DNA of 11,108 bases from a virus: the UHGV virus genome UHGV-0246901, one strand, 5' to 3'. This document shows positions 87-1,517 of this stretch, in pieces; position 1 is the first letter of the stretch, and every line of letters starts with the position of its first letter. The translations under genes were made by a program, and so were the position numbers. The notes under the pieces are model-generated. The model searched no databases and was not told the DNA's origin. It saw nothing but the letters and a program-made list of their open reading frames with translations.

Positions 87-125
87 CATCACTTAAGAGT
101 CTTCTCAGAGGGTTTTTAAGTGATG
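87..125 (+). repeat. IR-A copy 1: perfect 10-bp inverted repeat CATCACTTAA/TTAAGTGATG with 19-nt spacer
   Basis: Arms 87-96 and 116-125 are exact reverse complements. The spacer GAGTCTTCTCAGAGGGTTT can pair further (CUUC/GAGG inner stem). Near-identical copy at 1479-1517. About 30 nt downstream of the P1 -10 element, so near the 5' end of the predicted transcript. Confidence 0.7.
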
Positions 126-131
126 TGTAGC

Positions 132-223
132 CCGGTACGGTTTGGTACGGTAGTGTTCTGTGAGGTCGGGTAATGTAAGGTAAGGTATGGGTGGATGGTA
201 GTAGCCACATTAAAAATCTACCA
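132..223 (+). repeat. GT5-H unit 1: (NNGGT)n pentameric tract 132-191 plus stem-loop 196-223
   Basis: Eleven consecutive pentamers ending in GT (ccggt acggt ttggt acggt agtgt tctgt gaggt cgggt aatgt aaggt aaggt), then stem TGGTAG(196-201)/CTACCA(218-223) with loop TAGCCACATTAAAAAT. No ORF; period is 5, not 3. Confidence 0.7.
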
Positions 224-229
224 AGTTTC

Positions 230-258
230 TAAAGAGTCTTCTGTTGAGGGTTCTTTAC
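230..258 (+). repeat. third copy of AAGAGTCTTCT motif (variant with extra bases) ~40 nt upstream of the first CDS
   Basis: TAAAGAGTCTTCTGTTGAGGGTTCTTTAC matches the spacer of IR-A (TAAGAGTCTTCT..AGAGGGTTT) but lacks the flanking 10-bp arms. Confidence 0.4.
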
Positions 259-298
259 AAACAACTTAACAATCAACTAAAGTGTGGAGCTAAATGCT

Positions 299-886
299 AT
301 GAAACTGTTAAATATCAAAATCACTGGTACTCGTCCTTTCCTGAGCCACGCAGATACGCTGTCAGACCCATTAAACCCTCTGACAAAGTATCACAAGTCT
401 CTGTCCAGTAAACGTAAAAAGACTGACGAAGACTATGCGCTCTTAGCAGAAAGCCAACTGGTAACTTCTTGTTACTACGATGAGCAGCTAGGTTTTGTTA
501 TGAACGGTGAGATGATTGAGGCTTGTATCAAGTCTGGTGCAAAGCTCAACAAACTTGGTAAGGTAATTGACCGAGCCATTATGCTGACAGATGTAGTCTT
601 CCCAATGACTATCAAGAACTGTCCAGCAAACCCACAAGAACTTGCTAAGAATCCAGATTTTATCTATGCTAAATCTGTTAAGATTGGTACAGCACGAGTT
701 ATGAGCTACCGTCCAATCTTCCGTGACTGGTCTGTAGAGTTTGGTTTGATGTTCGATGAAGAGCAAATTACCCGAGAGGAACTCCTGATGGTTCTGGAAA
801 ATGCTGGCAACCTTTGTGGTGTAGGTGATTGGCGTCCACGCTTTGGTCGTTTTTCTGTAGAAGTTATTTCAGAAGGTAACGTTTAA
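299..886 (+). CDS. hypothetical protein (~195 aa)
   Basis: Track ORF 284..886 begins at GTG. ATG at 299 is preceded by GGAG (286-289) at ~9 nt and is the preferred start. Stop TAA 884-886. No recognisable motif by eye. Confidence 0.7.
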
Positions 887-888
887 TT

Positions 889-1329
889 ATGAATACAAAA
901 GCATTAGCAGCAAAGTTTAGTTACGGTGACACTGTATCACATTCTGAGATGGACACCTTCTTAGGTATTGTGAAGCCAACTTATCAAGGTGACATTGTTA
1001 AGTACGAAGATGAAATGAAGGCTTATGCACTTACACGTCTAAACCGACTTGAGAAGTTTATTGAAAAGCTTCTTAAAGAAGAGAAGATTTATCTGGTTGC
1101 TTCAATGGGTGTTGGTTATCGTGTGGTTGAACCTAAGCATCAAGCAACTATTGCAAAACGTAAAATGTCTGGTAAGATTGGTCGTGCTTTAAAGCAAGCC
1201 ACTCAAGCAATTGAGAATGTGAATACTATGGCACTTAGTCATCAAGAACGTTCACGACTGATTGAACAGCAAAACCATTTAGCTGCTATGAAAGCTAACA
1301 TTAACAAGCAACGTAGAAAACCTTTCTAA
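889..1329 (+). CDS. hypothetical protein (146 aa, basic C-terminus)
   Basis: ATG two nt after the upstream stop (translational coupling); consistent codon usage; followed directly by an intrinsic terminator. Confidence 0.7.
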   Translation: MNTKALAAKFSYGDTVSHSEMDTFLGIVKPTYQGDIVKYEDEMKAYALTRLNRLEKFIEKLLKEEKIYLVASMGVGYRVVEPKHQATIAKRKMSGKIGRALKQATQAIENVNTMALSHQERSRLIEQQNHLAAMKANINKQRRKPF

Positions 1330-1337
1330 GTTGACTA

Positions 1338-1363
1338 GGAAGCCTCTTCGGAGGCTCCTTTTT
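1338..1363 (+). terminator. rho-independent terminator T1
   Basis: GC-rich stem AGCCTC(1341-1346)/GAGGCT(1351-1356) with TTCG tetraloop, followed by CC and T5 (1359-1363), immediately after the stop of 889-1329. Confidence 0.7.
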
Positions 1364-1390
1364 AAAAGGTCTTTAAACAGGGTCTTTTAA
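1359..1390 (+). repeat. M motif copy 1: TTTTTAAAAGGTCTTTAAACAGGGTCTTTTAA (tandem GGTCTTT)
   Basis: GGTCTTT at 1368-1374 and 1381-1387; whole 32-mer repeated at 1609-1640 with one indel and one substitution; in both copies it starts at the T-run that follows a hairpin. Confidence 0.55.
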
Positions 1391-1391
1391 T

Positions 1392-1478
1392 AAGGTAGGA
1401 TAGGGTGGTGTATGGTTTGGTAAGGTTGTGTAAGGTAAGGTATGGGTAGTTAATCGGAGCTACATTAAAATTCGATTA
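1392..1478 (+). repeat. GT5-H unit 2: pentameric tract 1392-1441 plus stem-loop 1451-1478
   Basis: Ten phased pentamers, nine ending GT; stem TAATCG(1451-1456)/CGATTA(1473-1478), loop GAGCTACATTAAAATT. Stem sequence differs completely from unit 1 but pairing is preserved. Confidence 0.7.
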
Positions 1479-1517
1479 CATCACTTAAGAGTCTTCTAAG
1501 AGGATTTTTAAGTGATG
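1479..1517 (+). repeat. IR-A copy 2: CATCACTTAA / 19 nt / TTAAGTGATG
   Basis: Arms 1479-1488 and 1508-1517 identical to copy 1; spacer GAGTCTTCTAAGAGGATTT differs at 2 positions, one of which converts a G-U to an A-U pair in the inner helix. Confidence 0.7.

Follow-up and report, generated by a model that had tools for sequence, protein, structure and literature searches.

The guide RNAs of a phage-encoded silencing system, Viral Interference Programmable Repeat (VIPR), are bracketed by RNA hairpins of 17-18 bp, and we propose, with a probability of about 0.6, that these hairpins are punctuation and processing elements of the precursor RNA. They lie in the UHGV virus genome UHGV-0246901, in a stretch of 11,108 nucleotides (nt) analyzed over its whole length (the window), which is part of a Felix O1-like phage (Felixounavirus) and contains a VIPR locus of type II. 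The system is already known, and our finding is an undescribed detail of it: the readable text of the two preprints on VIPR (10.64898/2026.04.26.720920, 10.64898/2026.04.26.720927) makes no mention of a 5' or inter-guide hairpin, or of the processing of type II arrays. We refer to the hairpins as heads (types A, A', and M; Table 1); their structure, strand specificity, position, and membership in the locus were determined directly here.

According to the accessible text of the first preprint (10.64898/2026.04.26.720920), VIPR is a phage-encoded, CRISPR-like system of RNA-guided DNA silencing, first reported in 2026, and consists of a small ancestral RAMP protein (Vipr), an accessory protein (Vap), and guide RNAs (vrRNAs) with 9-16 YNNGG repeats and an invariable, pseudoknotted 3' tail of ~40 nt. 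In its model phage, SUSP1, vipr and vap have one vrRNA upstream and three downstream; these vrRNAs, ~100 nt long, are expressed, co-purify with Vipr, and silence the transcription of DNA matching their NN dinucleotides, with one base skipped per unit. In the available part of the second preprint (10.64898/2026.04.26.720927), cryo-electron microscopy (cryo-EM) places one Vipr protomer on each repeat, with flexible ends, and GGY is held by residues H17, R138, D177, W178, and R179.

The window corresponds closely to this description. Its first 2 kb match 231 phage records at 80-99% identity, and vipr is present in 118 of them. The order of elements is that of phiSUSP1: promoter P1, head A, a vrRNA, head A', vipr, vap, a terminator, three head-vrRNA units, and promoter P2, so that vipr and vap (299-1329) lie within the array. 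Where the preprint, in its readable text, defines Vipr as a RAMP protein of ~20 kDa with an RRM core, a G-loop, and a thumb (10.64898/2026.04.26.720920), the product of the window is a small RAMP protein of 195 aa, 97.9% identical to that of phiSUSP1 and with no match to any Pfam family. All five GGY-contacting residues are found at the same positions, and R138 and R179 are invariant among 39 Vipr homologues. As expected of a type II locus, vap lies directly 3' of vipr (its product is 99% identical to the SUSP1 protein), the four tracts have 10-13 units, and each tail combines a pseudoknot with a hairpin. SUSP1 thus resembles the window in proteins, YNNGG tracts, pseudoknotted tails, placement of the head hairpins, and the satellite family in which its targets fall, but its NN guide sequences are not those of the window and it belongs to Suspvirus rather than Felixounavirus. 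The pentamer arrays extend well beyond these phages: a DNA pattern scan of IMG/VR with (GGTNN)5GGT returned arrays with diverse NN in many unrelated viral contigs, and a Vipr-family profile found a homologue adjoining the pentamer array in 29 of 120 loci (L029-L148) chosen by DNA pattern alone. The remaining (GGTNN)5GGT matches in those 120 loci are ordinary microsatellites.

The initial annotation of the window described an exact inverted repeat (IR-A), CATCACTTAA-N19-TTAAGTGATG, at 87-125 and 1479-1517, and the repeat is present at both places; the pattern CATCACTTAA-N{15,25}-TTAAGTGATG matches these two sites only in the 11.1-kb window, with none expected from 200 shuffles. The suggestion that the spacer pairs further also holds, in that the plus-strand RNA of both copies forms an uninterrupted 18-bp hairpin (-17.5 and -21.1 kcal/mol, z -5.5 and -7.3). 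The minus strand forms the outer 10 bp only (-9.9 kcal/mol), because three to four of the pairs are G.U and the complete fold is thus confined to the plus strand. Between the copies there are two differences, C106->A in the loop and G112->A, the latter turning a U.G into a U-A pair as had been proposed. A seven-fold motif family had been described as well. Allowing at most one mismatch, AARGRGTCTTYT has five matches, all in 94-1637, versus 0.70 expected, and the count of seven is reached only when each of the two M-type hairpins contributes both its arms. The motifs are the arms of five hairpins, since the wobble-rich helix makes the 3' arm AGGGTCTTTT resemble the 5' arm AAGGTCTTT; head A' carries the form AAAGAGTCTTCT at 231-242. 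That annotation had missed the GGT-periodic tracts, the tails, and the two genes, that is, the VIPR guide array that is the context of the hairpin.

All heads are rich in A-U and G.U pairs, with 31-38% G+C. Each starts 0-2 nt past the preceding tail, and its pairing extends right up to the first repeat unit, with no base left between; in type M, the AAGG at the foot of the stem itself resembles a repeat unit. Head A' is placed after the first tail, just upstream of the vipr ribosome-binding site, and no repeat tract follows it.

Conservation of the pairing was examined in related phages. A covariance model identified 96 plus-strand copies scoring at least 44 bits in 28 loci, the reverse strand scoring much lower, and 95% of the cells in these copies are paired versus 86.3% in shuffles (0 of 500 shuffles reached the observed value). 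Types A and M differ completely in their six basal pairs, both sides being changed, yet remain complementary, while the apical five pairs (G.U, U.G, C-G, U.G, U-A) are invariant between them. Moreover, an M-type homologue occurs in seven of nine satellite elements of Escherichia coli, described below (L153 11330-11368, minus strand), where the loop UAAAC is kept and all 17 pairs are formed. It has further compensatory changes of its own, such as the replacement of C-G by U-A in a core that is otherwise invariant; with its inclusion 96.1% of cells are paired versus 85% in shuffles, and seven pairs differ on both sides. The homologue sits directly after a terminator in the satellite early operon, with no repeat tract behind it. 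It had been suggested that a genome-wide search might show the motif to mark a class of promoters; the model argues otherwise, as heads are confined to this locus, with a single copy across the whole 86-kb Felix O1 genome. Rfam 15 gave no match in 1-1900 at E values up to 1 (two weak chance matches fall elsewhere in the window) and none on the related arrays.

The position of the heads carries the functional argument. A consensus scan found no sigma-70-like promoter inside the downstream array, and a terminator lies ahead of it; vrRNA2 to vrRNA4 are therefore most simply explained as cut from a longer RNA. In the window, tract plus tail amounts to 83-98 nt, and to 89-109 nt in SUSP1, versus 122-137 nt when the hairpin is added, and the sizes given in the accessible preprint text are "~100 nt" and "<100 nt", with "12 repeat units" for SUSP1 vrRNA1 (10.64898/2026.04.26.720920, 10.64898/2026.04.26.720927). 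If mature vrRNAs of ~100 nt consist of tract and tail, as these partly available sources indicate, the ~39-nt hairpin is therefore the sole sequence between guides, and guide separation must therefore act in the hairpin or at its edges. Comparative support comes from the satellite, where a solitary vrRNA that has a promoter and a terminator to itself lacks a head hairpin.

We therefore suggest the following scheme. Transcription from P1 would give a precursor in which each unit of tract and tail is bracketed by a 17-18-bp hairpin, and the hairpin would set the 5' limit of Vipr polymerization. A nuclease, most likely a double-strand-specific enzyme such as the host RNase III, would separate the guides at the hairpin, which would then be discarded; both the cleavage and the nuclease are what we infer from the arrangement. 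On the mechanism outlined in the available text of the SUSP1 preprints, a Vipr protomer would clamp each GGY, leaving the NN bases free to read double-stranded DNA with every third base skipped, and the resulting complex would silence transcription of a competing satellite element.

Several observations weigh against this scheme. The two-sided covariation represents about three lineages (A, M, and satellite) and hence few independent events, and variation within each type is small and includes six single pair-breaking changes, such as GTGAGG, AAGCGATG (in Felix O1), and GGGTGTTT. The absence of the hairpin from the mature vrRNA is taken from the reported lengths and repeat number, together with the silence of the readable preprint text on 5' structure. 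Neither A' nor the satellite homologue is followed by a tract, so that to call the element a 5' handle of guides would be too narrow, and its role may be broader. In other VIPR arrays the guides adjoin directly or are separated by unstructured AT-rich stretches; array function in general thus does not depend on a hairpin. Finally, at 17-18 pairs, the stem is slightly under the ~20-22 bp of classical RNase III substrates.

If guides were not cut apart at the hairpin, it could still act as a boundary, keeping neighboring Vipr filaments apart and in register while non-specific exonucleases trim the RNA down to what the protein protects. This would fit the abutment of the last hairpin pair on the first YNNGG unit, the repeat-like basal AAGG of type M, the single protomer per repeat with flexible ends seen by cryo-EM (10.64898/2026.04.26.720927, in its accessible part), and the arrays of other clades that need no structured spacer. 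We nevertheless regard it as unlikely, in that a stable hairpin resists 3'-5' exonucleases rather than aiding the removal of ~39 nt, and A' and the satellite homologue have no 3' tract to delimit. It is similarly doubtful that the head is recognized specifically and is more than a generic spacer. In that case the invariant wobble core (GUCUU/AGGGU) would be read by a dedicated factor that times or licenses guide maturation; candidate readers are Vap1, Vipr acting in the manner of Cas6, and a host double-strand RNase. The satellite could in turn use its compensatorily mutated copy to tap into, or decoy, the processing machinery of the helper phage.

The initial annotation offered two functions for the element, a stable 5' hairpin on the P1 transcript and an operator. 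An RNA hairpin it is, paired across paralogues and in the satellite homologue, and a strong one does occur ~24 nt past the predicted P1 start, while A' closely precedes the vipr ribosome-binding site. The hairpin could thereby shield the 5' end of the P1 transcript, of a processed vipr-vap mRNA, or of the vrRNAs from 5'-end-dependent decay by RNase E. As a P1-specific 5' stabilizer, however, it does not hold up, given the leader of ~24 nt ahead of copy 1 and the four further copies internal to the transcript; a role in stability is improbable more generally, because ~24 unpaired nt would defeat 5'-end protection unless the RNA were first cut, three copies lie inside the downstream array, and the mature vrRNAs, at the sizes given in the available preprint text, are too short to hold the hairpin. 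An operator in which the 10-bp arms bind a dimeric protein and regulate P1, be it the XRE-type helix-turn-helix (HTH) protein or Vap, is very improbable. The outer arms of type A are indeed perfect 10-bp palindromes, an HTH_3 protein is encoded 0.9 kb downstream (2414-2713), and DNA binding is predicted for type II Vap proteins in the accessible text of the first preprint (10.64898/2026.04.26.720920). Yet the DNA palindrome ends with these 10 bp, since the inner eight pairs need G.U, and the minus strand folds poorly; the arms of the M and A' copies are unrelated to those of type A and those of the satellite copy also differ, the copies sharing RNA geometry instead. Copy 1 spans +24 to +62, off the promoter, and the other copies are far from promoters, so no palindrome is both conserved in all copies and overlapping a promoter. 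The true promoter-flanking palindrome is that at P2 (1732-1778). We give equally little credence to the idea that conserved heads and tails serve mainly as DNA homology for the gain, loss, and swapping of guide cassettes. Phages carry from one to six head-tract-tail units, vipr-vap is found in about half of the relatives and not in Felix O1, and a given tail type is invariably followed by one and the same element, all of which such a scaffold would accommodate; but it would explain sequence conservation and not compensatory pairing or strand-specific G.U pairs, and is more likely a side effect than a selected function.

Punctuation of the precursor by the heads remains our preferred reading. 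The tracts that the heads precede are G/T-rich. A profile built from 820 in-register units (72 distinct tracts from 28 related loci) shows any base at pentamer positions 1 and 2, G in 78% of units and never C at position 3, G in 97% at position 4, and T (87%) or C (12%) at position 5 (Y 0.99), with tract lengths stepping by 5. The NN positions vary freely among phages whose flanking genes are ~94% identical. There are five types of tail, which share the loop AGCYACAUUAAAA and differ from type to type in a covarying stem; the pseudoknot, in which a portion of the loop is paired with the final repeat units, covaries as GUAG/CUAC, GUGG/CCAC, and AAGG/CCUU. The layout of vrRNA1 recurs in SUSP1.

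Table 1. Elements of the VIPR locus, in window coordinates
Feature	Position	Strand	Details
P1, sigma-70-type promoter	29-56	+	TTGACA-16-TATACT; 11/12 consensus matches; conserved in Felix O1 and SUSP1
Head hairpin type A, copy 1	87-125	+	18 bp; 60.9 bits; its end directly abuts the first YNNGG unit of vrRNA1
vrRNA1 (98 nt)	126-223	+	tract 126-192, 13 NNGGY units; tail 190-223; pseudoknot GUGG 191-194/CCAC 205-208; hairpin UGGUAG 196-201/CUACCA 218-223
Head hairpin type A'	225-262	+	GUUUCU...ACAAAC; -13.6 kcal/mol; model R1 21.6 bits at 224-263
vipr	299-886	+	195-aa Cas7-like RAMP protein
vap1	889-1329	+	146-aa VIPR accessory protein; 145/146 residues identical to SUSP1 gene downstream of vipr; PHROG 5926
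Intrinsic terminator after vap	1341-1365	+	U-tract doubles as 5' arm of next head hairpin
Head hairpin type M, copy 1	1357-1395	+	17 pairs, one U.U mismatch, loop UAAAC; -10.6 kcal/mol; 61 bits
vrRNA2 (83 nt)	1396-1478	+	tract 1396-1447; tail 1445-1478; pseudoknot GUAG/CUAC; hairpin UAAUCGG/UCGAUUA
Head hairpin type A, copy 2	1479-1517	+	-21.1 kcal/mol; 61.4 bits
vrRNA3 (89 nt)	1518-1606	+	tract 1518-1574; tail 1572-1606; pseudoknot GUAG/CUAC; hairpin AGUCUCA/UGAGACU
Head hairpin type M, copy 2	1607-1644	+	-10.4 kcal/mol; 56.3 bits
vrRNA4 (88 nt)	1645-1732	+	tract 1645-1700; tail 1698-1732; pseudoknot AAGG/CCUU; hairpin UGGCAG/CUGCCA
Inverted repeat I3 around P2 -35 box	1732-1779	+	19-nt arms AAATAAGCTATAAAATCTG / CAGGTGTTATAGCTTATTT; present in Felix O1
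P2, promoter	1751-1779	+	TTGACA-17-TATTTT; promoter scan

A BLAST search of the downstream array against complete E. coli genomes matched a 72-nt stretch in two chromosomes. The stretch lies in an island of ~11 kb (L153 5330-16048, E. coli CP027445; also L154-L161) with recombinases and phage baseplate and tape-measure genes, a content that fits the satellite described in the accessible text of the first preprint (10.64898/2026.04.26.720920). Members of the family occur in 487 of 5,426 complete E. coli genomes and are integrated at several different sites. The satellite encodes its own vrRNA (L153 14969-15090), with a promoter, a leader of ~40 nt, a covarying tail, and a terminator, and no Vipr. 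It was through this vrRNA that the satellite was located; the Felix O1 baseplate-hub gene had no blastn match in E. coli genomes.

The guides of sister phages match the satellite with a 1-nt skip at 21/22, 19/20, 24/26, and 17/18 NN bases, versus only 12-19 at skips of 0, 2, or 3. We scored the window guides in the same way against nine of the 487 satellite-bearing genomes, using 100 order-shuffles as control. The best 1-nt-skip match of vrRNA1, 21/24 (best shuffle 19), lies in frame in a 183-aa gene, and that of vrRNA3, 17/20 (best shuffle 16), in frame in a recombinase gene; at both sites the skipped base is the codon wobble position. vrRNA4 reaches 18/20, equal to its best shuffle (18), 32-60 nt upstream of the same 183-aa gene, and vrRNA2 reaches 15/18, below its best shuffle (16), over a ribosome-binding site and start codon. 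Better matches may exist, because nine of the 487 genomes were sampled. The exact 1-nt-skip pattern of vrRNA1 had no matches in IMG/VR. To judge from these sequence matches, it is plausible that the window guides have targets in the satellite, and the guides look functional.

Complete loci are not universal among the relatives. Felix O1 keeps one head-vrRNA-tail unit between P1 and P2 (NC_005282 57632-57913, minus strand), and a tblastn search over its entire genome found neither vipr nor vap. Orphan guides of this kind are common: vipr and vap are missing from Felix O1 and from about half of its relatives, which nonetheless retain, between P1 and P2, one or two well-formed head-vrRNA-tail units (L006, L008, L012, L014, L018, L020, L023, and L027), and such guides could perhaps use the Vipr of a relative infecting the same cell. 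The Felix O1 genome paper lists other direct repeats and not these elements (PMC3185647).

P1 drives the precursor that contains head A, vrRNA1, and vipr-vap. The distance of ~30 nt from the promoter to copy 1 given by the initial annotation is correct, P1 ending 30 nt upstream. An inverted repeat, GGTGAGTA (45-52) / TACTCACC (77-84), spans the P1 -10 box and the transcript start and is conserved in Felix O1 and SUSP1. At the other end of the locus, the long inverted repeat around P2 would form, as RNA, a long hairpin closing vrRNA4; as DNA, it is a candidate operator, and a better candidate for the HTH protein than IR-A. The HTH gene occurs in Felix O1 irrespective of the completeness of the locus, a further point against IR-A as its operator. 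The neighborhood comprises a DNA ligase (upstream in relatives), small hypothetical proteins, the HTH protein, DHFR, and thymidylate synthase. The first gene after P2 (1824-2207) encodes 127 aa (PHROG 4332) with a signal-peptide-like N terminus, MKKILLAAAMVMAMNLPVNA, and its product is probably a secreted or periplasmic early protein. Further downstream, between the convergent thymidylate synthase gene and minus-strand genes, a G+C-rich hairpin with A/T runs on both sides (5306-5340) is probably a bidirectional terminator; it explains a weak, sub-threshold Rfam match to STnc100.

Other explanations were considered and rejected. Heads are not intrinsic terminators, being low in G+C and followed by a repeat tract, and the scan's sole terminator is that following vap; nor are they sigma-70 promoters, since type M gives TTAAAA-18-TTTAAT without the key A2, type A has no usable -10 box, and the scan lists none. 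For the tracts, a TRAP-like ring protein on GGU repeats has the right periodicity and the wrong protein; two-tier G-quadruplexes fit poorly with G at position 3 in only 78% of units and leave the conserved pyrimidine at position 5 unexplained; and a coding explanation is excluded by the period of 5. Chi-like recombination hot spots were dismissed as no consistent Chi sequence occurs, and boxA-like antitermination (GGTCTTTAAACA versus GCTCTTTAACAA) as the motif is buried in a stem. A replication origin past P1 with an R-loop or primase site, by analogy with T7, was unsupported once the RNA-protein system had been identified.

Recognition of the locus assigns functions to two "hypothetical" genes and to ~800 bp of "intergenic repeats" in well over 100 Felix O1-like phages, several of which serve in typing and biocontrol. 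The available text of the preprints does not describe the cutting of multi-guide VIPR transcripts into unit guides; the hairpin is the obvious candidate for it, which is relevant to multiplexed VIPR tools. The orphan guides and the satellite copy of the hairpin point to further layers of conflict between phage and satellite.

Arrays of other VIPR clades differ in what separates their guides. Hammerhead ribozymes are interspersed in type I and V arrays (10.64898/2026.04.26.720920, fig. S19, in the accessible text); they hold the same position between vrRNAs and presumably do the same job, the release of unit guides, but are self-cleaving, and the hairpin of the window has no ribozyme signature. 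In actinophage loci, minihelices resembling a T-arm (GGTTCGAnTCC loop and short acceptor-like pairing) flank the tracts (L151 1640-1690 and 2960-3010, Gordonia phage MakoManhole; L152 2360-2420, Mycobacterium prophage prophiBWHA-1), which hints at processing by RNase P or RNase Z, with no call on them by ARAGORN or Rfam. The IMG/VR loci show abutting units (L052, L073), 14-nt AT spacers (L064, with 13 guides), promoter-like AT-rich spacers (L050), and a GC hairpin (L132).

Among processing signals, the closest parallels are the RNase III hairpins between the early genes of phage T7 and in rRNA precursors, which are long, rich in A-U and G.U pairs, and situated between the functional RNA units of a polycistronic transcript. 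The heads are likewise long, A-U- and G.U-rich, and placed exactly between RNA units; with 17-18 pairs the stem is slightly short of the ~two helical turns of an RNase III site and lacks the internal loop typical of T7, and in our case cleavage is inferred. The repeat tract itself recalls the TRAP sites of the Bacillus trp leader, with (G/U)AG triplets, in having a periodic trinucleotide, free spacers, and one protein subunit per repeat, but the protein has another fold, and both the triplet and the rule of spacing are different: the units repeat strictly every 5 nt, and their variable bases are informative, unlike those of TRAP sites. As a whole, the system can be compared with class 1 CRISPR-Cas, in which Cas7, Csm3, or Cmr4 assembles on the crRNA. 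In both, the guide RNA is coated by a polymerizing protein, with bases flipped at regular intervals, a conserved structured handle caps the guide, and unit guides are produced by processing of an array. The window, however, has no CRISPR repeat-spacer array, adaptation genes, or other cas genes, and shares only the Cas7 fold; VIPR has a period of 5 nt with two informative bases per unit, is read with a 1-nt skip, and is encoded by the phage and aimed at a satellite. VIPR is a phage-borne RNA-guided system with a gapped code, and has been proposed as an ancestor of CRISPR effector complexes.

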